Shown one piece after another: positions 11,452 to 64,000 of a stretch of 64,000 nt of DNA (its first letter is position 1; each line of letters begins with the position of its first letter). This DNA comes from Bryobacterales bacterium. Its GTDB lineage: Bacteria; Acidobacteriota; Terriglobia; Bryobacterales; UBA6623. The DNA is taken from contig CAXXKD010000001.1 of assembly GCA_963422375.2 (NCBI GenBank), forward strand, positions 352,001-416,000, in the 5' to 3' direction. The translations under genes and the position numbers were made by a program. Below the pieces are notes generated by a model. That model made no database searches. It saw nothing but the letters and a program-made list of their open reading frames with translations, and was not told the DNA's origin.

Positions 11452-11526
<75 letters not shown>

Positions 11527-48980: not shown

Positions 48981-50648
48981 ATGAGACTTGGGAGCGTGCG
49001 CGTGGTCCCGGTCCGCACATGGCTTGCCGCCGGGTTGGCGTGCGTCGGCCCCTGGGGGCTGGCTTCCGGCCAGCCCCGGCCGCTTCTCTCCTGCACGACC
49101 GCGGCATCTCCCGGGCCCGTCTACGCCGGCGGTATCGCCGAGTCTCTCGCTGACATCGTCCTGACGTGCGATGCCAATGGCGGCGCAGGCCCGTCGGCAG
49201 CCCCGGATGTGCGGGTTGACGTCTCGGTCACCTTGAACGTGAGCGTTTCCAACGCCGTCGGCGCGGGCGGCGACGGCGAGCTGAGCGATGCCGTCCTCTC
49301 GGTGAACGACAACGATTGCGACGCGCCGAGCACCAGCGGTTCTTCGTTCGGGGTTTGCGACGCTCCGCGCGCGGACGTGCAGGACCCGCAGTTCGGGCGC
49401 CTCGCGTCGCCCACGACGCTCGAATGGCTCGACGTGACCCTGCCGCCGTCCGCGGCCCGAGCGACGCTGCGGATCCGCGGAATCCGGGGCAACGCTTCGC
49501 AGCTGCGCCTAGTGGCCGGTACCGGGCAACCCAGTCCTCCCGTCACGGCGACGGTGAGCGTTCGCTCAGATACAGCCGTCGCCGTGAGAAACAGCGTGGT
49601 GAGGCTCGGCTTCCCGATTCCGGGAGTCGCCGTGGAAGTTGCCGAGGCGTCCTCCTCCGCCGCCTGTCTCGGCGACCTACGGGGCAGGGCTTCAATTCGG
49701 CTGAAGGAGGGCTTTACCCACGCCTTCACAGCCGTGCCAGCGAAACGCTCGGGGAGCGCTTCGACGCGCATTCTCCTCGACTTCCACGACGTGCCGGACG
49801 ACGTATCGGTGAGCCTGTCACCGGCGGTGGGATGCCACCAGCCCGACCACGACGGCAGCGACGCCGACGGCAGGGACAGGGCCACTCTCGGCTTGGTGAG
49901 CGGGCACGGACGAGACGGCACCGGCGGGGTCGCCGGCCACGGCCCGCTCGAGTCGCCGCCCACTGTCGCGGTCGCCTTGGACCACGGTTTCGGGAGGGCT
50001 GTCTACGAGGTGCAGTCGGACGATCCCACGCGGGTGGAGGACTGTCACGTGCCCGTCCGGCTCGAGTCAGAATCCGACCGGGTGTCAAGCGCTCGCGTCA
50101 GCGTGCGGGCAGGGCTAGGGCCTCTCGGTGCTGCTTACGTCTCGAGCGAGGACGCGCCGGTTCCTCGGTTCGCCGCTCCGCCTCTGTCCAGTGCCGTCGA
50201 CATTGACCTCGCCGCCTGCGGAACTACGCTGCTCTTTCCGTTCGTAACGAACCAAGCGGGCTTTTCCACGTCGCTCCTCATCACTCACGGATCGAGGCAG
50301 GCGCTGACGAGTTCGTCGCCGGGCCGGGCGGCCTCCTGCGACCTGCACTACTACGGCTCGACTTCCGAAGGCCGTGGAGTGCTGCTGGTGCAGCACTCCA
50401 CGGCTATCGATCCCGGGGAGCAGCTGTCATTCAACCTTGCGGCTGGCAACTTGGAACAGAACATCGTCGGAACGGAGCAGTTTCAAGGCTACATCATGGC
50501 GGTCTGCGGCTATCCGGACGCTCGCGGCTACGCCTTCATCTCGGACGGCTTCGGCGACATCCCCGACTTGGCGATGGGCTATCTAGCCCCTGTCGTTCCG
50601 CTGGGCCCGGGCGGCAGGCGCTTGCCGATGGGCGAGGGCCAGCCGTGA
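48981..50648 (+). CDS. Secreted Cys-containing beta-rich protein (Bryobacter/Solibacter-type, S-layer-like), paralog 1
   Basis: Signal peptide; ESLADIVLTC, LRIRGIRGNASQL, CGTTLLFPFVTNQAGF, FQGYIMAVC and MGYLA. Confidence 0.75.
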   Translation: MRLGSVRVVPVRTWLAAGLACVGPWGLASGQPRPLLSCTTAASPGPVYAGGIAESLADIVLTCDANGGAGPSAAPDVRVDVSVTLNVSVSNAVGAGGDGELSDAVLSVNDNDCDAPSTSGSSFGVCDAPRADVQDPQFGRLASPTTLEWLDVTLPPSAARATLRIRGIRGNASQLRLVAGTGQPSPPVTATVSVRSDTAVAVRNSVVRLGFPIPGVAVEVAEASSSAACLGDLRGRASIRLKEGFTHAFTAVPAKRSGSASTRILLDFHDVPDDVSVSLSPAVGCHQPDHDGSDADGRDRATLGLVSGHGRDGTGGVAGHGPLESPPTVAVALDHGFGRAVYEVQSDDPTRVEDCHVPVRLESESDRVSSARVSVRAGLGPLGAAYVSSEDAPVPRFAAPPLSSAVDIDLAACGTTLLFPFVTNQAGFSTSLLITHGSRQALTSSSPGRAASCDLHYYGSTSEGRGVLLVQHSTAIDPGEQLSFNLAAGNLEQNIVGTEQFQGYIMAVCGYPDARGYAFISDGFGDIPDLAMGYLAPVVPLGPGGRRLPMGEGQP

Positions 50649-52489
50649 GCGCTCGAGTCCGTCTGGCCAGGAGTGTCCTGATGGGACTAAACCGGCCCGG
50701 CCGGTGCGGGGCCCGCTGGGCGGTCCTGCTGCTCGCCTGCTGCGGGGCCCGAGCCCAAGAGACGCTCCCGGACCCGAGCGCGGATCTGGGTGACATCTAT
50801 TGCACGGCGACGGCAACCGTGCCCCTCGTGCGGCTCGAGGGCACGAGCGAGCTGGTGGGCGACATTCTGCTTACCTGCTACAACTCCGGCGCGGTTACCG
50901 CGGTTACTAGGCCTTTCTCGAGCGGGTTTCTGGAAGCGGATGTGAGGCTCTCGCTGAATGTGGCTGTCGGCAACCGCGTGGGCACCGGAGGGGCACTGGC
51001 AGACGCGGTCCTCGTCGTCAACGGCAAGGACTGCCCTGCGTCCGGCGCGGCGCGCACCTTCGCCTCGTGCGGCCATGCCGACAGGACAGTCCAGGATCCG
51101 ATGCTGGCGTACCGGGACTCCTCGCAGCGCGGCACCCTGACTTGGCGCGGAGTCGCGATTCCGATCCCCGGTGCGCCGACGGGTGCCGACGGAGGCCGTG
51201 CGGCGCCGGTGGCGGACTGCTCCGGACGGTACGGGCTTCCGGGCGGATGTCACCCCCGCGCGACCACCATCCGCCTGACCAACATTCGTGCCAACGCCTC
51301 CGAGCTGGGTGCTAGCGGCGAGCCGACCGCGGTGGCTATCCCGATCGAGGCTTCGCTGGATGTGGCCGCTCCGGGCGCGACGGTGCGGATCGAAGGCGGC
51401 CTCCTGCGGGTAGCGGAAGCCGCTGCGGGGCTGAAGGCTGGAGTGCGCTCCCCGGTGCCCGAGCGCCTCTGCTCCCATGGCGAGACAGTCTCCGAAGTCG
51501 CCGTTTCCGAGGGATTCGCCACCGCCTTCAAGACAAGGGGAGTTGCCTCGGACCGGCCAGGTGACCCGGGCTGGGACGAGGCCTTCTACCGCCTCGCCGC
51601 GGACGGCTTCGATCCCGACGCCGGGCTGGCTGGCACGCGGATCCGCGTCGCGCTGGCCGGCCTTCCGGCGGGGGTGTCAGTCTTCGCGCCGACCCGCGTC
51701 GCATGTGCGCCCGACGGACTGCCCGGTACGCTGGAGCTGCGGTTAGTCGAGGGCGCTTCCGCCAGCGGGCTCGGCGGGTCGCTTGCCGGCAGCGCCGGAG
51801 GCGAGCGGTCCATGCTCGCGAGCGAGGACTTCGGGGCGCGGGCCGTGTACGAGGTCACGCAGGCCGACCCGCTGGTCCGGGAGGAATGCAGCATTCCCAT
51901 CCGCTTCGAGCGAACAGACCTCAATGCAAGGGCGGCCTTCGGCAGCAGAGTAGTCCTGTCCGTCGGCCTCGCCCCGGCCGGGCCGCCATCGCCTGGAGGT
52001 CGCGGGGACTACGGGCAGCGTTTCGTCAACGTCAACCGGCGAGGCCGACCGCGGATTGACCTTGTCGACTGCGGCACGACTCTGTTTTTCCCCTTCGTTA
52101 CAAGCCGCACTAACTTCGACACCGGGGTCGTGATAGCGAACACTTCGGCCGACCCGCTTGGTACCAGGCACGAGTCCGGCCAGTGCATCCTGCGCTACCA
52201 CGGCTCGCGGCAGTCCGGCCAGCCGGTCGAGCCGTCCATCCAGAGGTCGGCTTCTGTGCAGCCCGGCAAGCAGCTGGCCTTCACTGTCTCAAGCGGCAGC
52301 CCGGCTAACGGTCTCGCGCCCTTGGCAGGCTTCCAGGGCTACTTGGTCGCCGAGTGCGAGTTCCGGCACGCGCACGGATTCGCGTTCGTGACCGAGCAGG
52401 TCAACGGCGCTGCCATCTTGGCCCAGGGCTATCTCGCCGAGATCGTGCACGGGGAGGCCAGCGCAGGGGCGTCCGCTGGGCCTCCCTAG
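50645..52489 (+). CDS. Secreted Cys-containing beta-rich protein, paralog 2
   Basis: VRLEGTSELVGDILLTC, IRLTNIRANASEL, CGTTLFFPFVT, FQGYLVAEC and QGYLA; GTGA overlap with paralog 1. Confidence 0.78.
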   Translation: MSARVRLARSVLMGLNRPGRCGARWAVLLLACCGARAQETLPDPSADLGDIYCTATATVPLVRLEGTSELVGDILLTCYNSGAVTAVTRPFSSGFLEADVRLSLNVAVGNRVGTGGALADAVLVVNGKDCPASGAARTFASCGHADRTVQDPMLAYRDSSQRGTLTWRGVAIPIPGAPTGADGGRAAPVADCSGRYGLPGGCHPRATTIRLTNIRANASELGASGEPTAVAIPIEASLDVAAPGATVRIEGGLLRVAEAAAGLKAGVRSPVPERLCSHGETVSEVAVSEGFATAFKTRGVASDRPGDPGWDEAFYRLAADGFDPDAGLAGTRIRVALAGLPAGVSVFAPTRVACAPDGLPGTLELRLVEGASASGLGGSLAGSAGGERSMLASEDFGARAVYEVTQADPLVREECSIPIRFERTDLNARAAFGSRVVLSVGLAPAGPPSPGGRGDYGQRFVNVNRRGRPRIDLVDCGTTLFFPFVTSRTNFDTGVVIANTSADPLGTRHESGQCILRYHGSRQSGQPVEPSIQRSASVQPGKQLAFTVSSGSPANGLAPLAGFQGYLVAECEFRHAHGFAFVTEQVNGAAILAQGYLAEIVHGEASAGASAGPP

Positions 52490-52539
52490 GTGTCGGTAGG
52501 GAATTGGCGCTTGCTAGATTGGTTAGGGGAGAGTTAGGA

Positions 52540-53562
52540 GTGCCTTCAGAATCGGGGCGGGACCAAGCATCGCAGGGGGCGGACGTCCGCGAAATCGGCC
52601 GGCGGGTCGAGTCCGAGGCGGCCGTGCTGGCCGCGGTGCGTCGCGAGATCGGACGGATCATCGTCGGACAGGAAGCGCTGGTCGACGGACTCATTCTCGC
52701 TCTGCTTTGCAACAATCACGTGCTCATCGAGGGCGTGCCGGGTCTTGCGAAGACGCTGTCCGTGACGACGCTCGCCGGGGCGATCCGAGCCTCGTTCCGG
52801 CGAATCCAGTTCACGCCCGACCTGCTACCGGCCGACCTGATCGGCACGATGATCTACTCCCCGCGGGACGGAGGCTTCAGCACCAAGAAGGGCCCGATCT
52901 TCGCCAATGTCGTGCTGGCCGACGAGATCAACCGCGCCCCGGCTAAGGTGCAGAGCGCCCTGCTCGAGGCCATGCAGGAGCGACAGGTGACGATCGGGGA
53001 AGAGACCTATGCGCTTGACGATCCATTCCTAGTGCTCGCCACGCAGAATCCGATCGAGCAGGAAGGCACCTATCCGCTGCCGGAAGCGCAGGTCGACAGA
53101 TTCATGTTCAAGCTGCGCGTGGGCTACCCGACGCGGGCACAGGAACTCGAGATCCTCCGACGCATGGCGCGAACTCGAGTGGAGCACGAAGTCGCCCCGG
53201 TTCTCGCCCCGGCCGACATCGTGCGGCTGCGGCAGCTGGCTGACTCGGTCTACATGGACGCGAAGATCGAGGAGTATATCGTTGACCTAATCGAGGCGAC
53301 CCGGCGGCCCGAGGAATACAAGCTGGATATCGGCGAGTGGATTCGGCACGGCGCATCGCCCCGAGCCACGATCTATCTCGCCATGGCAGCGCGCGCTCGC
53401 TCGATGCTGCAAGGCCGGGGATTCGTGATCCCGCAAGATGTCAAGTCGGTGGCCCCGGACGTTCTACGGCACCGCGTCATGGTGACATACGAGGCGGAAG
53501 CGGAAGAACTCTCGCCCGAGGACATCGTGCAGCGGGTGCTGGACGGCGTTGAAGTCCCCTAG
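52540..53562 (+). CDS. moxR: MoxR family AAA+ ATPase
   Basis: [38 protein letters not shown] and [25 protein letters not shown] start at 52540. Confidence 0.95.
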
Positions 53563-54250: not shown

Positions 54251-55292
54251 CCTGATTACCCACAAGACTCAGCCAAGGTTAGGAGGCGGTAAGGCATGGG
54301 CGGGGTGCGCACGGAGGCGTGGAGCAGGCGGGGGACCAGCGCCTGCAGGTCGTAGCGGCGGTTGAAGCGGTAGCGGAACTCGGCGAGGTACCGCGGCAGG
54401 TGCTTGCCGTCGAGCGCATGGCAGGTTCCCGCCAGGGACTGCTTGACGTGCGCCAGCAGCGTGTTGCTCCAGACGCAGCGGGAATCCCCGCAGCTCCGCT
54501 TCCCGCCTCCGGTGCCGGTCGGCACGTGCTCGCAGCCGGCGTCGGCCCCGCCCCGGAAGCAGGCCAAGCCGTCGGAATGCACCTCCGTGCCGGGCTGCAA
54601 GTGCCGCCCGGCCCACGCTGCCAGCGTCTTCTTGCGCAAGCCCGCCACGCTGGCCACGCTGCTCAGGCGCATCCTTGCCGGCTGGCCGTCGGCGGTGACC
54701 TGCACGGCGGCGACGAACGGCGTCTTGCCCGCCGCGCCGCGCCCGTGCTTGCCGCCGGTCCGCTCCCCGCCCCAGTAGGCATCGTCCACCTGCACGATGC
54801 CGCCCGGCGGCACGCGCTCGTCGCGCTCCTTCATCGCTTGCAGGAGCTTGTGCTTCACCTTCCAGGCCATGTTCCGGCTCACGCCCAGCTGCCGCGCCAG
54901 TTCCAGCGGCGAAACGCCGTGCTTGCCCTGCGTCAGCAGGTGGATCGCCAGGAACCAGACGGTCAGCGGCAGCTGGGTGGCGGCGAAGATCGTGCCGGCG
55001 ACGAGGGAGGTCTGGCGGTGGCAGGCATGGCACTGCCAGAGCTTGCGGGAGCGGATACGGCAGTGCCGTCGGGAGCCGCACTCCGGGCAGCGGAAGCCGT
55101 CCGGCCAGCGGGCGTTGAAGACGGCGTGCTCGCATGGCCCCTCGCTGCCGTAGTGCTGCAGGAACTTGCCCAGGCTGAGTCCCTTCTGGAATTGCACGCG
55201 ATTGCGTTTCAGCTGCTATCCCCTTTCCTATTAGAGATTTCCGACCTCCTCCAGTATAGCATATCCTCGTCTGGTGTTCGTTGGTAATCAGG
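54251..55292 (-). mobile_element. IS1595 subgroup element (copy D) nested in the left end of copy B
   Basis: Ends CCTGATTACC ... GGTAATCAGG; near-identical to copy C; start ATG changed to CTG (55210-55212); 9-bp duplication (SSVASVAG). Confidence 0.92.
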
Positions 55293-55324
55293 TAAATCAA
55301 TTTGATATTTATTCTGGATATCTG

Positions 55325-55354
55325 TTGACATTTGGTGGAGTATTTTGATAGAAT
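55325..55354 (+). promoter_or_regulatory. IS transposase promoter
   Basis: TTGACA-N18-TAGAAT, identical in copy A. Confidence 0.7.
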
Positions 55355-56671
55355 AGTTCCAATATATGAGGTCGTCTATGAAGCAGGAATGTCCCGGGAA
55401 GTGGTTTCGTAAAGGCATCACTCTGATTGAAGTGATCGCCATGTTCCGCGATGACGAATCCGCGGAAAAGTGGTTCGCCTCCATGCGCTGGCCCGACGGT
55501 CCGGTATGCCCCCACTGCCGCGGCTCCAGCGTGCAGTCCGGCACGGCCCACCCTTCGATGCCGTACCGTTGCCGCGGCTGCGGCAGGCGCTTTTCCGTGC
55601 GCACCGGCAGCGTGATGGCCGACACCAAGCTCGGCTACCGCACCTGGGCTGTCGCCCTGTTCCTGCTGACTACCGGCATCAAGGGCGTCTCAAGCATGAA
55701 GCTGTACCGCGACCTGGGCATCAGCCAGAAGTCGGCCTGGCACCTGGCGCACCGCATCCGCGCGTGCTGGGAGCGGCATCAGGGCCTGTTCGCCGGCCCG
55801 GTGGAGGTGGACGAGACCTACGTCGGCGGCAAGGAGCGCAACAAGCACGAGAGGAAGAAGGCCCGCGCCGGGCGCGGGCCCGTTGGCAAGACACCCGTGG
55901 CGGGGGCGCGGGACCGCGCCACGAACGCAGTGGCCGCGCGGCCGCTGCCGGGCACCGCCAAGGGCGACCTGCAGGGCTTCGTGCGCGCCCGCGTCGTGCC
56001 GGGCGCGCAGCTCCGCTCCGACGAGGCGGCGGCCTGCGCCGGCATGGAGGAGTTCCCGCACGAAGCCGTCAGGCACTCCCGCGGCGAGTACGTGCGCGGG
56101 GCAGCGCATACGAACGGCATCGAGTCGTTTTGGTCCCTGTTCAAGCGCGGCCTGTACGGAACCTATCACCGGATGAGCGTCCGTCATCTCGGCCGCTACC
56201 TGACGGAGTTCGCGGGACGGTGCAACGACCGCGACTGCGACACGGCGGAACAGATGCGGCGCATGGCGCGGGGCCTGGTCGGCCGGACGCTGACCTACCG
56301 GCAACTGGTCGGCAAGGCCGCAGTCGCGGCCGGAGCACGGTCTAGCCGGTCAGCTGCAGCCTCTCTTCACGCTCGGTGCGAAGGGCGCTCCGGATCCGGA
56401 ATCCCGCGCCGCGACCGGTGTCCGGCCTGGACTATTCATAGATGCAGCCGTCTTGGAAGGGGAGCCTCTCCACGGCAATCCGGGTTCCACCGGGGCGCCC
56501 GAGGCGGCCTCACTAGTCCGTGCGCCGCCAAATCCGCTTGCAGAATCGATTCAGATACGAACCGACCCTTCGGTGCCCACCTCGGCCGCACACGAAAGAC
56601 CCGAGCTAGACGCCGACGTCCCCAATCAGAGCAGTTCTAGCCGGATATGGCGTTGTCGGCACTCAGATATA

Positions 56672-56930
56672 TAGTGCTTGTGACAAAACCCCTGAATTCT
56701 GGCCCGATCAGCATTTCATACTACATCCTGAGGTCGGATGGATCTCCAAACACAACATATAGGGCCCAAGGTCGGAAGTTGCTCAGACGCCAATCGCGAA
56801 GATTTCCGCGCTCTACCCAGAATCGCCAGGATTTCGGATTAGTCGTAGCATTCCAGCGAAATCTTCGCCTTGAGAGATTGGACCTAACGCCTTTGTTGTC
56901 AAGGGGATACGAGTTTTGTCACGGGCACTA
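56672..56930. mobile_element. Non-autonomous MITE (~260 bp) inserted in the right inverted repeat of copy B
   Basis: Ends TAGTGCTTGTGACAAAAC ... GTTTTGTCACGGGCACTA within the TATATA of the host repeat; no transposase. Confidence 0.85.
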
Positions 56931-57240
56931 TATAATTCCCTTTCGTAACTAGCACCACTTCACGACTCACCCATGGACACATGAATGCGGCGTGTTCACT
57001 CGGAGGGCATGAAATCGGGCACGGGCGCGGCAGCGCTGGGTTGAGATCATGGGTGACGGAAGCGGGGACAGCACGTCAATCATTCTGACAGGCGGAGCGC
57101 CAGCCCCGGATTGCGATCCCAACAGCCATGCGGGCACTCCGGCCGCCTCACCCCGCGCAATGAAAACAGACGATAGAGCACGGGGCGACGGAGCCTGCGC
57201 GACACCGTGGGTGGCTGTGTTCGTTGGATCGAGCGCGGCC

Positions 57241-57734: not shown

Positions 57735-60707
57735 TCACTCGCCTTTGAATAGATCGCCCTGCTCTTTAGAACCCTCTGGTTCAGTCTCCAAATCGTTCGC
57801 CAGTCGGGAAATCTCCGACCAGCTCTGCACCAAGGTGTTATACAATAGCGCCTCGGCCGCACGCTTCTTTCGGTCGCACAAGGTATAAAGGCGGTAGCAG
57901 AGTTCACGAGCTGTTTCGGCGTAGGTGCCGAGTGCAGCTACGATCTCTGCGACACCACGTTCGCCATGCTCATCAAGATCCCGGATCAGATGGTGGACCA
58001 TTTCCCAAGCGGTCGGCCTTGTGTCGGATCTTGGGTCCCAGTCGTCGGGCAGCTCGTTTGACCTAAGTAGACGCACCTTTCCACCCTTCGACATTACGAT
58101 TCCGGTCTCCACCATGCTGGCGACGTCGGTGTTCTTCGCCTTGGAGAGCGTCTCCGCCTCCCCGAATCCGCCTTCGGTGAAGCCGTGCTGCGCGAACCAC
58201 TCGAGCGCCCAGCGCGTGGCGGCGTCGAGATCGCCCTCCTGGTCCTCCAGTACCTTGTCGAGGGCTTCGTTGATCAGCGCGAGAGCCTCCCGCACCGAGA
58301 GCGGCCGGCCCTCGGCGTCCAGCACCCTCCCGTAGCGCGTGTACACGGCCATGCCGGGGCCGATGGCGGCCTGGGCGAGATCGACGGGGGCGACGTTGCC
58401 GGACTGCAGGAGGTGCAGGGCCCGGGGCAGCTCGGCGCGCAGCGCCGTGACGAACTCGCGGCGGGTCCCCGCGGGCGCGTCGGCCGGCCGGCGTCGGCAG
58501 GCGAGGACGATGCTGGAGGCGAGGGCGTTCGTGCCCATGCCGACCAACCGATTGCCAAGCTCCGTCCGCATCGGCCACGTGCCGGTGATCGCGAATCCGG
58601 AGCGGATCGCGGCGTCCAGGAACGTCTCCCAGCCCTTCGTTTCCGATTGCTTGAAGGCGTAGTAGACCGTCACGGGGAAGCCGGGATGAGACTGTTCCGC
58701 GAGCCGTTGAAGCGCCTGTGTCATTCCGTCGAGAAAAAAGTCCTCCGCAGCCTTCTTGCTCCCGTGCCGGTACGGCGTGGCGACCAGTTCCTCCGCCTTC
58801 GGGACCGCCAGCGTTGCGAACAGATTGGGGAACACCGGCTTCAGGGACCGTCGGAGCCAGACGTAGAAGAAGTCCGACAGGTCCGCGTAGCCGATGTTGT
58901 CGTAGTACGGTGGGTCCGTTGAGATCATCCGTGACGACGACTGCAGCTCTCTTGTCGTAGCGTCCGCTTGGTCAGTCACCCCAGGTACGTGCGGAGGCAG
59001 GGCGATAGTCAGAGGGTCGACCACACACGTGATGGCGGCGTCGACGCTGCCCGTGGCGGTTCCCAGAAAATTTGGTTCGGCGTAATCCCACACCATCGGA
59101 AGCGCTTGCCGCCCAAAGCAGTGTTGAGCTTTTTGTCCAACGGGGTTCCACCGAACAAGGCTGTTCCCACTCATCGCCAATCGATCCACCGCCAACGCCA
59201 GATACAGGGACACCGCCTCGGCGTACGCGGTCGCGCCCGTCCCGCCGTCGCGCAGCGGCTTGCCGTCGTCGGGCAGGCCGGCGGCCGCGGCGTCGCGACG
59301 GACGCGCTCGGCGGCCTCCCCGACGAGGTCGGAGAAGGTAGTGAGGGCGACGAGCTGGCGAGACGTGAATAGGTCGGCCCATGTAAAGAAACCGTAGCCA
59401 CGACCGCTAACCAAGTTGGTCGTGTCGCGGTTCATCGTTTCGTCAGGGATCCAGCGCGGCCGCGCTCGCGACGCCGCATCTTCGTCGCGATGAGTCGGCG
59501 AGAGATACACGCGCCTGCCGCCGCCTTCCGCAACGACGGCCATCAGGCCCGATCCCATCCGACCAGCCATGCTTTCTGCCTTGACGTAAGCCGGGGGTAC
59601 TGGCGACCCTGACATCAGGCACCGGAAGTTCGCCCCGCGCGCGAGCTTCGTACCCCGCTTGGCCGCTACCGCATCGGGCGGCGCGCCCACCCGCACCGTG
59701 AATCGGTACCGCCGGCCTTCGATCACGGGCTCGACCCACGCCTCCTTGCCCTTCTTCGTCGACAGCATGAACGTCGACGCGAGGGGCACGTCCACGTCGG
59801 CGAAGGCCGGGTTGGGGCTCTTCACCGTCCGCGCCCACAGCCACGCGATGACCGTCAGCTCCCGGCCCTCGTACGGCTTCAGGTCGGGACGCTCCCTGAC
59901 CATTTCCGGCGTGATCTCGGCCCGCGGATACAGATGCCCGATTCGATTCCCCGCCTCGTCCCGCATCCACCGCCCGTAGCGCCGCACGTCCTCGGCCAGC
60001 CCCCGCGCGCCGCGCCACGTCCTCTCGACCAGGTTCCGCTCGGCCCGCGCCTCCGGGTGCACCGGCGCCCGGCCCGCGAACCGCGGCGGGATCTCGATCA
60101 TCGCCTTGCTGATCAGCACCGCCACCGGGTTCAGGTCGCTGGCGTGCGCCTCGAGGCCGAGGCGCTGCGCCTCCAGCGGCAGCGAACCGCCGCCCGCGAA
60201 CGGATCGTGGAACGCCGGCAGGCGATCCGGGTCGAACAGTTCGGGCGCACGCGGATGGCCGGCGTGCTCGGCGCACGCCCGCCGCCAGCTCCGCCGGATC
60301 TCGGCCCGCGCGCGCTCGAGCACCGTCTCGTTGGTGGTGTTCTCCCACACGACGAGGTCCCGGAGGATGCCGAACAGCCGCTCGCGTTCCCGCTCGGCCG
60401 CGATCTCCCGCAGCACCTGACCGTCCGTCCCATTGGCACCCGCTGCTTCATCGCCGGCCGCACGCCGCTGCCGGAGCGCCCGCTGCGCCGCACGCTTCCT
60501 CTCCGGGTTCGACAGCAGCACGTCGACGTACTCCGACGGATCGTCCACCATCTGCGCGAAGAGGACCGCCCGCGCCACCGCCAGCGGCTTGCGTGACCAC
60601 CACAGATGCAGCGTCGAGGGGTGACCGTGCCGGACAGACTTCTCCCGTGCCCCCGCCACGTTGATCTCGTCGAGCGGCAGGGCGGTCTCGATCAGTTTCT
60701 TTCTCAT
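57735..60707 (-). CDS. DUF1156-domain DNA amino-methyltransferase
   Basis: KKLIETALPL, GHPSTLHLWWSRKPLA, SAM motif DPFAGGGSLPLEA, catalytic TDPPYYDN and NALASSI. Confidence 0.95.
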   Translation of the reverse strand: MRKKLIETALPLDEINVAGAREKSVRHGHPSTLHLWWSRKPLAVARAVLFAQMVDDPSEYVDVLLSNPERKRAAQRALRQRRAAGDEAAGANGTDGQVLREIAAERERERLFGILRDLVVWENTTNETVLERARAEIRRSWRRACAEHAGHPRAPELFDPDRLPAFHDPFAGGGSLPLEAQRLGLEAHASDLNPVAVLISKAMIEIPPRFAGRAPVHPEARAERNLVERTWRGARGLAEDVRRYGRWMRDEAGNRIGHLYPRAEITPEMVRERPDLKPYEGRELTVIAWLWARTVKSPNPAFADVDVPLASTFMLSTKKGKEAWVEPVIEGRRYRFTVRVGAPPDAVAAKRGTKLARGANFRCLMSGSPVPPAYVKAESMAGRMGSGLMAVVAEGGGRRVYLSPTHRDEDAASRARPRWIPDETMNRDTTNLVSGRGYGFFTWADLFTSRQLVALTTFSDLVGEAAERVRRDAAAAGLPDDGKPLRDGGTGATAYAEAVSLYLALAVDRLAMSGNSLVRWNPVGQKAQHCFGRQALPMVWDYAEPNFLGTATGSVDAAITCVVDPLTIALPPHVPGVTDQADATTRELQSSSRMISTDPPYYDNIGYADLSDFFYVWLRRSLKPVFPNLFATLAVPKAEELVATPYRHGSKKAAEDFFLDGMTQALQRLAEQSHPGFPVTVYYAFKQSETKGWETFLDAAIRSGFAITGTWPMRTELGNRLVGMGTNALASSIVLACRRRPADAPAGTRREFVTALRAELPRALHLLQSGNVAPVDLAQAAIGPGMAVYTRYGRVLDAEGRPLSVREALALINEALDKVLEDQEGDLDAATRWALEWFAQHGFTEGGFGEAETLSKAKNTDVASMVETGIVMSKGGKVRLLRSNELPDDWDPRSDTRPTAWEMVHHLIRDLDEHGERGVAEIVAALGTYAETARELCYRLYTLCDRKKRAAEALLYNTLVQSWSEISRLANDLETEPEGSKEQGDLFKGE

Positions 60708-61930
60708 TTCTCAACCGCAGAAACATGAAGTTCAGCGTCGCCGCGCCGTCTGACGTTCGGAAGACCGATGTCAAGTCCGGCCCGGTCGCCAAACCGAATC
60801 CCGGCACCGTCGCATGCGATTCTCAGATACCGCATCTTCCGGTCATTACTCAGATACGCAAGCAACCACCAGTTGCCCGGCAACGAGGCTCCGCCGCTCG
60901 CCATCGACTCGTTCGAGGACAGCTCTTGCCTGGTCCGCGCCACACCGCGATTCTTGCGGCCGCGCAGTTTCGGGTCGACCCGCGGCAGGAAACCCGGATC
61001 GCGTGCGGCCAGGGCTGCAAATATCGCCACGTACGCCTCCTTGGCGTTCCTTGCGCGCCGCTCCTCGCCGAGCAGCCGATAGCGCACTGCGCCCTTGCCG
61101 GGTGCGGGCGATTCCGGCCGGGTAGGAACGGCGATTCCAAGGCCAAGCACCCGCGCCTCCGGCCGCGCTGATGCCTTTCTCGATCCAGGCGTGGGAGTGT
61201 CGGACGTCCTGCGCTGTTGACGGCCATCATCCGGCTTCAGGCGGCGCAGAAAGTCAGCAACGTCCCGTCTCGCGGGGCTGCCTTCGGTAAGCAACGACGT
61301 CGCCTGTGTCAGCAGGACCGCCAAGCGCTCGTCGAGGTCGCCTGCGACAAGTTGCGCCCATGCACGCGGAATCGCCTCCCGCGCCTTGTGCCTATCGAGC
61401 CGCGCGTTGAGATCTTCCCGCGCGAAGTCGGCGGCCTTCCCCGACTTGGTGTTCGCGCAGGACAGATAACGCTCGAGTTTCGCGGCGACCTCGTCGAGCG
61501 AATCCGTCTCGATGTCGAAGGTGCTGACAAGGCGTTCTGCATACGTTCCGGCGCTCTGCGTCGAGTGGAAGCGCCAGTTGACGCCGTTCGTCAGCAAGGC
61601 CAACGGGGCGCCGGCGTGGAAGGAGTACTCGAACAATTGCCGGTCGCCATCGGATTGGCCGATCCGTTTCAGCACGCACTCGGTCGACTTCAGTTCGACG
61701 ATGCACCGCGGGTTGCGGTTCGACACGCACAGCGCCATGTCGATCCGCCGCGTCGAGGTCTTCAACCTCAGCGAGTATTCGGCGCAGACTTGGTCAGGAT
61801 CGTATACGTCCCATCCCAACGCGTGGAGGATGGGTTGAACGATCCGGGTGCGGACCGCCGTCTCGTTGGGGTATGCGCTCCGCGAGATCCCGTGCCGGAT
61901 TCTCTCGAGAGTCTTCGTCAGATCATGCAC
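60704..61930 (-). CDS. HsdR N-terminal-type PD-(D/E)XK nuclease with a SeqA-C-like C-terminal domain
   Basis: NETAVRTRIVQPILHALGWDV, RIDMAL, IVELK, QLFEY and LLTNGVNWRF; low-complexity linker; C-terminal GRKNRGVAR...LPGNWWLLAYLSNDRK. ATGA overlap with the methyltransferase. Confidence 0.82.
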   Translation of the reverse strand: MHDLTKTLERIRHGISRSAYPNETAVRTRIVQPILHALGWDVYDPDQVCAEYSLRLKTSTRRIDMALCVSNRNPRCIVELKSTECVLKRIGQSDGDRQLFEYSFHAGAPLALLTNGVNWRFHSTQSAGTYAERLVSTFDIETDSLDEVAAKLERYLSCANTKSGKAADFAREDLNARLDRHKAREAIPRAWAQLVAGDLDERLAVLLTQATSLLTEGSPARRDVADFLRRLKPDDGRQQRRTSDTPTPGSRKASARPEARVLGLGIAVPTRPESPAPGKGAVRYRLLGEERRARNAKEAYVAIFAALAARDPGFLPRVDPKLRGRKNRGVARTRQELSSNESMASGGASLPGNWWLLAYLSNDRKMRYLRIACDGAGIRFGDRAGLDIGLPNVRRRGDAELHVSAVEK

Positions 61931-62018
61931 TGCCCAACGGTCTCCAGCCGCGCCGGCGTCCCGACTTGCAACTCATCTCGCCGGCCGCGGGCATCACCAC
62001 TCTTCCCGCAGGCGCTGC

Positions 62019-62942
62019 ATGACCGAACCATCGCCGTCGAGAATCATCTTCATGGGAAATCCTAGCACTTCACGCACTACAGCCGGTCACGCTTCCTTCG
62101 AGGCCGTCGCCGAGGAGGTCTTCCGCCGCTACGGCCGCGCCTGGAAGCCGCGGACCACCACCGTCAACCGCGCGTACCTGCGCAATCAGATTCTGCCCTG
62201 GTTCCGCGGCCGCCCGATCGGCGACATCACGCACCATGACGTGCAACGCTGGTTCGCAACCCTGCACGCGACGCCGGCGGCGGCGAACCGCTCGCTCCCG
62301 ATCCTGTCGGTGATCCTGCGTCAGGCGGAGACCTACGGCCACCGGCCGGACGACAGCAACCCGTGCACGGGTCTGAGACGTTACCGGGAGCGCGGACGCG
62401 AGCGGTTTCTGACCGGCGACGAGATCCGACGGCTCGGGACAGCGCTGGCGGCGCACGAGACCGTCGTGCCACTGGCCGTTGCGGTAGTGCGCCTCCTGCT
62501 GCTGACCGGCTGCCGGCAGGGCGAGGTCCGGACGCTGCGGTGGCAGGACTATCGCGAGGGCCATCTGTTCCTGCGCGACAGCAAGACCGGCCCGCGGACC
62601 GTTTGGCTGGCGTCGGCCGCCCGCGCCGTGCTCGACCGGCTACCCCGCACGGTCGAGTGGACCTTCCCCGCGGCGACCGGCGGCGGTCCGATGCCGACAG
62701 AGACGCTGTATCGCTGCTGGCGCGTCGTCCGCACAGCGGCGGGCATGCCTGACGTGCGGCTGCACGACCTGCGCCACAGTTACGCGAGCTTCGCGCTGCG
62801 GCGGGGCGAGACCGTGCTGACCATCGGTCGTCTTCTGGGACACCGCGACCCGGCCACCACGCTGAAATACACGCACGTCGCCAACCCGCTGGTTCGCAGC
62901 GCGGTCGAAGCCGTCGGAGCGGTTCTGGATGCAGAGCGATGA
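62019..62942 (+). CDS. Tyrosine recombinase/integrase 1 (no arm-binding domain visible)
   Basis: LLTGCRQGE, DSKTG, LHDLRH, LLGH and TLKY: complete catalytic set. Confidence 0.92.
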   Translation: MTEPSPSRIIFMGNPSTSRTTAGHASFEAVAEEVFRRYGRAWKPRTTTVNRAYLRNQILPWFRGRPIGDITHHDVQRWFATLHATPAAANRSLPILSVILRQAETYGHRPDDSNPCTGLRRYRERGRERFLTGDEIRRLGTALAAHETVVPLAVAVVRLLLLTGCRQGEVRTLRWQDYREGHLFLRDSKTGPRTVWLASAARAVLDRLPRTVEWTFPAATGGGPMPTETLYRCWRVVRTAAGMPDVRLHDLRHSYASFALRRGETVLTIGRLLGHRDPATTLKYTHVANPLVRSAVEAVGAVLDAER

Positions 62943-64000
62943 CGCGCCGACGCTCCGTGCCTTCGTCGCGGGAGCGTGGAAGTCGGCGTGCTACGAGCGC
63001 TGCAAGCCATCGACTCGCAAGCGCATGGACAGCGCCTTGCGGGCCCAACTGCTGCCGACCTTCGGTGCGCGGCGGCTCGATCGAATCGGCCGGAAGGCGG
63101 TCCACCTGTGGTTCGATTGCTACAGCCGGACGGCACCGGCCGGAGCGAACCGCACGCTGGACGTGCTGCGGCAGATTTTCAATCACGCCGTCGCGTGCGG
63201 ACACGTCACGACCAATCCGACTCGCGACGTCCGACACAATCGGCGTCTCCAGCGGACACGCTTTCTGTCGCGCGTCGAAATCGACCGCCTGCATGAGGCT
63301 CTGGACGCGCATCGCGGACGCGGCTCGGGCGAGCAACAGGCGGAGATCATTCGTCTGCTGCTGTTGACCGGGTGCCGGAAGAGCGAGATCGTGCACTTGC
63401 GCTGGTCGGAGGTCAGCGAGGAGTCGCTGCATCTGACAGACAGCAAGACCGGCCCGCGGACGGTCTTGCTGAACGTGCGAGCGCGCGCCGTTCTCGAGCG
63501 GCAGCCCCGAGCGGGCAGCGCGTACGTGTTCCCTTGGCTGGCCGATGCGTCGCAGAGCCGTTCGGGCGAGCTGTCCCTGTGGCGGAAGGTGCGCCGACAG
63601 GCAGGGATCGCGGACGCGCGCCTGCACGATCTTCGGCATACCTTCGCGAGCCACGCCGTGATGCAGTCCGTTCCGCTGCCAGTGGTTTCGCGCCTGCTCG
63701 GCCATTCCCAGGTCCGGATGACGCTCCGCTACGCGCATGTCGGCGACCGCGAGACCGAGGCGGCGGCCGAGCGGATCGGAGACGCCCTCGCGGCGCTCTT
63801 GTCCGAGCCTGTCCCCGACGCGCGGGAACCCGAAACGGCCCGGAACCCGGCCCGCCGTTCCGCTGGCGGCGGAGAGTCCTCGGCGGCGGAAGAGACCGCG
63901 GTCACGTTCTTGACAGCGAGCCATGCAGGTGGGATACTGCCGCAAGATGTGGAGAGCGTGAACGCTGGGGAGCTTCGTCAATCCCTTGGCAAGGTTCTCG
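62929..64000 (+). CDS. Tyrosine recombinase/integrase 2, open at the window edge
   Basis: Translated by hand from ATG 62929: LLTGCRKSE, DSKTG, LHDLRH, LLGH and TLRY; no stop before 64000. Confidence 0.9.
   Translation, partial: MQSDDAPTLRAFVAGAWKSACYERCKPSTRKRMDSALRAQLLPTFGARRLDRIGRKAVHLWFDCYSRTAPAGANRTLDVLRQIFNHAVACGHVTTNPTRDVRHNRRLQRTRFLSRVEIDRLHEALDAHRGRGSGEQQAEIIRLLLLTGCRKSEIVHLRWSEVSEESLHLTDSKTGPRTVLLNVRARAVLERQPRAGSAYVFPWLADASQSRSGELSLWRKVRRQAGIADARLHDLRHTFASHAVMQSVPLPVVSRLLGHSQVRMTLRYAHVGDRETEAAAERIGDALAALLSEPVPDAREPETARNPARRSAGGGESSAAEETAVTFLTASHAGGILPQDVESVNAGELRQSLGKVL

Follow-up and report, generated by a model that had tools for sequence, protein, structure and literature searches.

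The DNA considered here, referred to as the window, is a stretch of 64,000 nucleotides from the genome of a Bryobacterales bacterium (GCA_963422375.2, contig CAXXKD010000001.1), which in our labelling is G000:C3:352001-416000; G labels refer to a genome set that includes relatives from the genus, and L labels to fetched stretches. The end of the window cuts through a locus of the Hma defence family, and the subject of this work is this locus with its two inverted copies of the methylase gene hmaB, its two recombinases and a nuclease. Within the window, hmaB1 (57735..60707, minus strand) codes for a full-length DUF1156 N6-adenine methyltransferase of 990 amino acids, recognised by PADLOC and Pfam, and overlaps at ATGA with the gene for a nuclease of 408 amino acids (60704..61930, minus strand), in which an HsdR_N-type domain is combined with a predicted SeqA C-terminal fold. 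Next to the nuclease are found the 19-codon remnant of the start of a VapB-like antitoxin (61994..62053, minus strand), where relatives hold an intact vapB-PIN pair, and two tyrosine recombinase genes on the plus strand, recombinase 1 (62019..62942) and recombinase 2 (62929..64000), the latter fused to a Phd/YefM antitoxin domain and continuing 212 bases past the window to G000:C3:416212. Both recombinases keep their catalytic motifs. The fusion of recombinase 2 to Phd/YefM is also found in several relatives, and here it is followed by a hybrid remnant, pieced together from two different PIN genes (L001:6929-8385).

An earlier sequence-only reading had taken the nuclease and the methylase for a helicase-free, two-gene restriction-modification module with an orphan methyltransferase, i.e., one with neither an SNF2 helicase nor a DUF499 ATPase nearby. 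Its description of the genes was borne out: both frames and their overlap are real, both genes are defence-related, the methyltransferase is of the DUF1156 type (E 5.5e-25) with FAGGG at 170-174 (motif I) and DPPY at 598-601 (motif IV), the nuclease is of the PD-(D/E)XK type, and the divergent recombinases, placed about 90 bp away, lie at 88 bp if the first ATG is used, the true start being perhaps further downstream, as the alignment to relatives begins at about residue 26. However, the methylase is no orphan, as hmaC and hmaA start 4.7 and 8.2 kb past the window end, and the two-gene system does not exist as such. Beyond recombinase 2 follow the cargo HEC-01 (G000:C3:416399-418161, plus strand), the second gene of which, DUF4276, has an in-frame stop; hmaB2, the inverted truncated copy (G000:C3:418158-420656, plus strand), which is frameshifted after about codon 811; hmaC (G000:C3:420736-424068, minus strand), which codes for a HEPN-DUF499 ATPase with HEPN_Swt1 and DUF499 domains; and hmaA (G000:C3:424152-427775, minus strand), which codes for an SNF2 helicase with a NOV_C nuclease (E 1.9e-20) and with GAGKT and DEAH present. 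HmaA, HmaB and HmaC are each found by PADLOC with E 0 (HmaB1 with 1439 bits), and hmaA and hmaC are each single in the genome. All three core genes lie inside 18 kb with the embedded genes between them, in an order that departs from the usual A-B-C, the full hmaB being 8 kb from hmaC; in L075 the same cassette occurs in A-B-C order.

The two hmaB copies consist of constant and variable parts (all coordinates of hmaB1 on the minus strand). The methylase core is predicted to span about residues 12-743; no solved structure matched HmaB by sequence, nor by Foldseek at E <= 0.001, and VIA-align gave generic Rossmann methyltransferases only. Between motif I (170) and motif IV (598) lie two variable regions, V1 (aa 345-450, 59358..59675) and V2 (aa 505-595, 58923..59195), of which V2 is predicted to be part of the target-recognition domain. 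Exact blocks of 191 bp (aa 105-168, 60205..60395) and 623 bp (aa 481-688, 58645..59267) are shared by hmaB1 and hmaB2, and blocks common to both copies have about double depth in independent contigs. The 623-bp block contains V2, which is thus identical in both copies, so that only V1 (62% DNA identity between hmaB1 and hmaB2) could switch in this genome, with two alleles. Toward the C-terminus follow an end block (aa 765-793, 58329..58415), which is homogenised in paired copies and in which we see a candidate crossover region, and a constant acidic domain (aa 794-990, 57738..58328). The truncated copies of relatives stop at the end of this block and lack the acidic domain: among 14 truncated copies listed, 13 have their end at codon 793 or at most about 8 codons beyond it, and hmaB2 in this genome runs further. 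Since the Rossmann core ends near residue 743, truncation takes off the acidic C-terminal domain only.

This arrangement recurs. The methylase search covered 41 genomes, in which 15 regions were mapped, and from the 625 stretches confirmed in GTDB the 79 best loci were taken, so that this set is biased toward close relatives; many of its flanks are under 10 kb; a locus found in both sets was counted once (L079 = G042, L082 = G009). A back-to-back hmaB pair around two recombinases was found in G000 (twice), G007, G011, G012, G016, G019, G023 (twice) and G009, the contigs of G009 and G011 ending within hmaB copies, and G018 has an ordinary hmaA-hmaB-hmaC operon. Among the best 79 GTDB loci, hmaA or hmaC is present in 69 and an inverted second hmaB in 10; nine of these 10 have the two recombinases and span three phyla (Acidobacteriota, Gemmatimonadota, Binatia). 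Inverted repeats within the coding sequence comprise six arm pairs of 107-775 nt with 84-96% identity. An integration scar was considered and rejected, the repeats being inverted and not direct, and an assembly error at the window locus was rejected in view of the long-contig genome, the same layout in relatives and independent contigs. Other layouts were also seen: in L077:7032-12817 and L090:5573-12853 the hmaB copies are direct, not inverted, and the recombinase pair is absent; in L140 the recombinase pair is accompanied by one full hmaB and no second copy, and hmaC is cut short; and L104, a short contig, carries two convergent hmaB 3-prime halves.

In paired copies the constant blocks behave differently from the variable regions. 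Identity within versus between loci is 90.5 versus 75.5% for the N block, 88.4 versus 72.0% for the middle block and 95.6 versus 81.4% for the end block, and for the end block the partner copy is the nearest sequence in 23 of 28 cases. For V1, in contrast, identity is 62% within and 57% between loci and the partner is nearest in 6 of 34 cases; for V2 the values are 56 and 49%, and 4 of 32. Clustering gave 12 alleles of V1 and 14 of V2, which occur in 32 combinations in the 36 copies (of 38) in which both are readable, and full and truncated copies have the same alleles, which also recur in different phyla. It should be noted that alignment A2 leaves out five hmaB loci with in-frame stops (L112, L124, L132, L134, L140) and that in the greedy clustering of V1 one copy (L085) fell into a neighbouring cluster. 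A second back-to-back pair in the same genome (L004; G000:C2:1172865-1180300), with no hmaA or hmaC nearby, is degraded, having recombinase remnants only and two PIN toxin-antitoxin pairs; its two V2 alleles are not those of the locus on C3, and it could serve as a donor of alleles.

Both orientations of the inner segment exist among relatives. In the 13 loci in which the full and the truncated copy can be distinguished, the recombinases face the truncated copy in five (G000:C3, G016, L079, G023:C8, L136) and the full copy in eight (G000:C2, G007, G012, G019, L074, L075, L084, L085); when only loci with the same hmaA-hmaC flank are counted, the numbers are three and four. Matching cargo sets are found in opposite states in G016 versus G019 and in G023:C8 versus L074. 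In G452 one contig carries the locus twice, once at each end; the two are 100% identical, with the inner segment reversed, and the crossover lies within a 1-kb identical 5-prime block.

We read these features as an Hma locus with an invertible, specificity-switching methylase, in which a full and an inverted truncated hmaB surround two recombinases and the nuclease is independent cargo on one arm, and give this reading a probability of about 0.7. In such a switch, the two recombinases would invert the inner segment, in which they lie, so that other target-recognition segments would be joined to the one C-terminal end that is complete. The outcome would depend on the place of the crossover: only the cargo arm in front of the full copy would be exchanged if it falls in the 5-prime block, V1 would be swapped if it falls in the middle block, and the whole head if it falls in the end block. 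The truncated copy, since it lacks the C-terminal domain, would be a silent store. By analogy to MANTIS, V1 and V2 would set the sequence that is methylated and restriction by HmaA would follow: in the MANTIS methylase MtsC, the target-recognition domain lies between FAGGG and DPPY, and exchange of parts switched methylation and restriction (10.64898/2026.09.23.753747). HmaC would load the methylase product and HmaA would restrict unmarked sites. A joint fold prediction for the tail of HmaC and the C-terminus of HmaB scored 0.42 (best control 0.00; contact agreement at least 73%, partner predicted local distance difference test (pLDDT) at least 80). The mark set for such folds was attained by 116 of 157 pairs with a solved structure and by 2 of 215 mismatched ones; of these, only 18 solved pairs and both mismatches scored at most 0.60, so that the model weakly supports docking of the two parts.

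Part of the evidence weighs against such a switch, and much of it concerns the recombinases. Of the 12 matches to the recombinase pair within the genus, 11 have hmaB copies on either side and one is on a 3-kb contig without hmaB, and 20 of 20 hmaB-linked recombinase 1 sequences fall into one 97/96 branch of 22. However, relatives of the pair are also found elsewhere in the source genome, and recombinases with 44-66% identity, mostly paired, occur in eight loci without hmaB, which rules out that the family is exclusive to hmaB; no inverted repeat beyond the recombinase paralogues was found in six of seven such loci checked. One of the hmaB-less sequences nests among the hmaB-linked ones, and a pre-set test that the latter form one clade was rejected (p-AU 0.0015, two short-contig rows included); in a post-hoc retest from which these two rows were dropped, the clade was neither shown nor rejected (90/90). 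L109 dropped out of the input of the tree at E 1e-30. Because of the non-exclusivity and of these clade tests, we only infer that the recombinases take part in flipping. Moreover, the flip in G452 does not move V1 or V2 and may be the work of RecA or an artefact of assembly; the two copies in G016 are without any exact common block of 40 bp; a short recombination site, or the motif of the end block, was not found at a second position; and in one published test HmaB was without effect on phage T4 (PMC11232893). No inversion was seen at the level of reads in this organism, Logan contigs being unable to phase repeats and raw Hi-C reads of two runs giving 0 coverage; the lone opposite-strand joint in Logan contigs is out of register between the copies and was read as C2 paralogues. 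A separate observation, made by eye, is that at the truncated hmaB ends of 10 loci a GT stands at a fixed position just past the truncation and that a word of 5-6 bases from 20 bases upstream is loosely repeated there, which is possibly a recombinase site.

Several of these points would be accounted for if the inverted pair served as a donor cassette that the host reshuffles through homologous recombination or gene conversion, while the recombinases did no more than move the island. The recombinase relatives without hmaB and the lack of a discrete repeated site are in favour of this, long blocks, of up to 901 bp, are shared at places that vary between loci, and the 623-bp block looks like a conversion that erased V2 diversity. 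Nevertheless, the truncation point is fixed across phyla, the recombinases lie inside the invertible segment in nine of the 10 inverted GTDB loci as well as in the genus matches just mentioned, and the hmaB-linked recombinases cluster, so that we consider reshuffling by the host unlikely.

Signs of decay at the locus also count against a working switch. The methyltransferase had been called intact by the sequence-only reading, which is correct for the open frame but has to be qualified, since a 24-bp in-frame deletion (8 aa) after K691, present in hmaB1 alone of 53 copies, removes a near-invariant Ser-Thr. The deletion (near 58635) borders the identical block of 623 bp and is perhaps a recombination scar. 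Together with the stop in the DUF4276 gene, the vapB and PIN remnants, the homogenised V2, the degraded second locus on C2 and the loss from the nuclease of a Thr that is found in 35 of 41 close relatives, it could mean that the switch is real in the lineage and that this copy is a decaying relic with a damaged full-length methylase, in which nothing functional is switched. Against this stand the intact hmaA, hmaC, recombinases, nuclease active site and both methylase motifs. Moreover, the inner segment was recovered in Logan contigs of four runs (at most 4 samples, 2 studies), as one contig of 5.7-5.8 kb in three runs and as four pieces in the fourth. A relic appears quite improbable. A promoter scan gave nothing above chance.

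The nuclease consists of a PD-(D/E)xK domain (aa 1-175), a helical region, a disordered linker and a domain with the SeqA-C fold (aa 282-390, 60761-61087). The first of these matches HSDR_N_2 (E 9e-9) and HSDR_N (E 1e-8), and E23, D64, E79, K81 and Q98-x3-Y102 are kept across 86 relatives. In the predicted structure (pLDDT 93-98), residues 285-390 superimpose on SeqA residues 71-181 with Z 11.1 and a root-mean-square deviation of 2.3 A over 101 aligned residues; a profile of the nuclease family finds SeqA chains at E 1.4e-4, and Pfam SeqA matches 17 of the 86 family members at E <= 0.05. Foldseek gave no match at E <= 0.001 (SeqA at 7.4e-3), and a SeqA-named cluster in the ESM Atlas at 0.87 is a lead only. 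As judged from the model, the tail has the fold of the C-terminal domain of SeqA (PDB 3fmt, 1lrr, 3sk7; PMC2691817), here fused to an HsdR_N nuclease, which takes the place of the N-terminus; the N-terminal oligomerisation domain of SeqA is absent. The resemblance to SeqA that had been noticed by eye thus stands for the fold. It does not for the residues that read GATC: the loop of SeqA carries Asn150 and Asn152 (PMC2691817), and where SeqA has T149-N150-T151-N152, the nuclease has A358-Y359-L360-S361, so that Tyr359 and Ser361 stand at Asn150 and Asn152 (Asn at the first of these positions is found in 43 of the 86 family members). Gly324, Arg325 and Lys365 align with their SeqA counterparts. 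Because of the changed loop, reading of hemimethylated GATC by the nuclease is not supported. GATC is unskewed in the genome (observed/expected 1.04).

The family of the nuclease counts 3415 representatives at E <= 0.001 and 161 at E <= 1e-30, not all of which have been shown to carry the tail; a metagenome scan with the nuclease gave only two distant loci. One relative has a duplicated SeqA-like tail (L168:8526-10385 in G012, 620 aa), and in G444 two relatives are found in tandem (L172:6739-9073). Pairing with the methylase is not conserved: the nuclease adjoins hmaB in 2 of 16 loci, the other case (G023:C73) being a pseudogene with a frameshift and a stop; the family is absent from all 79 of the other hmaB loci from GTDB; and hmaA, hmaB or hmaC was found in none of 14 further nuclease loci (stretches of 11-20 kb), in which 40 open reading frames showed no consistent partner. 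For loci matched chiefly through the N-terminal domain (L055-L061, L064) only narrow flanks were covered, and four of them are without hmaB within 1.5 kb. The position of the nuclease on the arm often holds a vapB-PIN pair, and a 67% identical relative in the genus sits behind vapB-PIN without hmaB. The findings correspond to the case that the earlier reading had itself named as its refutation, an SNF2-DUF1156-DUF499 locus with a passenger, and we take the nuclease to be probable independent cargo on one arm of the Hma locus. It is intact and joined to a candidate reader domain, and no cognate methylase was found among its neighbours (the 40 open reading frames scanned), as is the case for type IV enzymes. 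Its most likely role, to go by sequence and predicted structure, is that of a stand-alone restriction-type enzyme, which the SeqA fold would direct to some sequence or modification different from hemimethylated GATC.

A self-contained restriction-modification pair of nuclease and HmaB1, in which the SeqA-fold domain would read the mark set by HmaB, has in its favour the ATGA coupling, the fold itself, the second adjacent case in G023:C73 and the finding that the related MANTIS methylase hemimethylates DNA. Yet hmaA and hmaC are present at the locus, the second case is the pseudogene, and neither the counts just given nor the genus relative behind vapB-PIN agree with a pair; in addition, a nuclease of fixed specificity could presumably not follow a methylase of which the recognition loops are exchanged. 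Such a pair is therefore very improbable. Rather unlikely, too, is a scheme in which, in several phyla, a two-recombinase switch deals combinations of V1 and V2 onto one docking tail, providing several self marks per clone, and also picks the cargo operon, while the SeqA-fold nuclease is a backup that reads hemimethyl-adenine and cuts phage DNA marked by a sibling's Hma allele.

As regards known systems, the locus belongs with Hma, also described as Type-1 DUF499-centred BREX-related (PMC8565338, PMC12839542, PMC11232893), with which it shares the SNF2-NOV_C protein, the DUF1156 methyltransferase, the HEPN-DUF499 ATPase and embedded nucleases and toxin-antitoxin genes. It differs in having hmaA-hmaC followed by two back-to-back hmaB around two recombinases, and inversion or duplication is not mentioned in the parts of these papers considered. 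Cargo genes are found in 62.7% of 1,485 Hma systems (10.1101/2024.01.29.577857), and PD-(D/E)xK auxiliaries have been described in Hma loci (PMC12839542). The Hma-embedded candidates (HEC) are likewise cargo defence genes nested in Hma (10.1101/2024.01.29.577857), and HEC-01 is present here on the other arm, whereas for the nuclease there is no HEC match at E <= 0.1. By description, MANTIS (Gao_RL, Type-2 BREX-related) also has a DUF499-type ATPase and a group alpha methylase with an acidic C-terminal domain; what sets it apart is DUF3780, a PLD-helicase and the presence of only one methylase gene. The match to NF042963 here stays at 119 bits, below the cut-off of 1000.

Programmed inversions are known from pglX of BREX type 1 and drmMI of class 1 DISARM (Milman et al. 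2023, PMC9881135) and from hsdS of Type I systems (PMC4948785, PMC4190663, PMC7672463). As in these, the inverted repeats are inside the specificity methylase gene, a recombinase lies in the invertible segment, and variable parts are joined to a constant end. In contrast to these, the methylase here is of the group alpha DUF1156 family, there are two recombinases, each head has a cargo arm, and we infer the inversion from comparison of loci. The text of PMC9881135 considered has no mention of DUF1156, DUF499 or Hma, and one supplement none of DUF1156 or DUF499. Neither an invertible Hma methylase nor a fusion of SeqA to a nuclease was found in a survey of the literature that took in few subscription papers and in which hits were judged mostly from listings, the supplements of PMC12839542 and of the preprints being outside its scope. 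The closest parallels to the nuclease are type IV reader-nucleases, e.g., winged-helix fusions (PMC11037411), in which a reader domain is likewise joined to a nuclease, as is predicted here from sequence.

If the switch works, phase-variable specificity, known from Type I, BREX and DISARM methylases, would be found as well in Hma, a family that is widespread and poorly understood, and the switch would explain why short-read assemblies break inside hmaB and why hmaB copies look orphaned or broken. The table of freely combined alleles, 12 V1 by 14 V2, points to where HmaB reads DNA, and because of it a recognition code of HmaB can be tested via two short segments and the methylome. The nuclease, in turn, would represent a separate family in which the SeqA fold has been put on a restriction-type nuclease.

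With respect to the surroundings, two IS1595-family transposase genes border the locus (window 54256-56940), and their ends recur dozens of times genome-wide. A MoxR ATPase (window 52516-53562) and a DUF58/BatA-like cluster (G000:C3:441588 onward; named by eye) lie on either side of the island, about 36 kb from each other, which suggests one operon split by the island and the transposons. Two tandem open reading frames of 555 and 614 amino acids (window 48981-52489) are without Pfam match and by eye have a similar layout and C-terminal motif. The sole tRNA of the window, tRNA-Asn (11452-11526), is distant from the locus.

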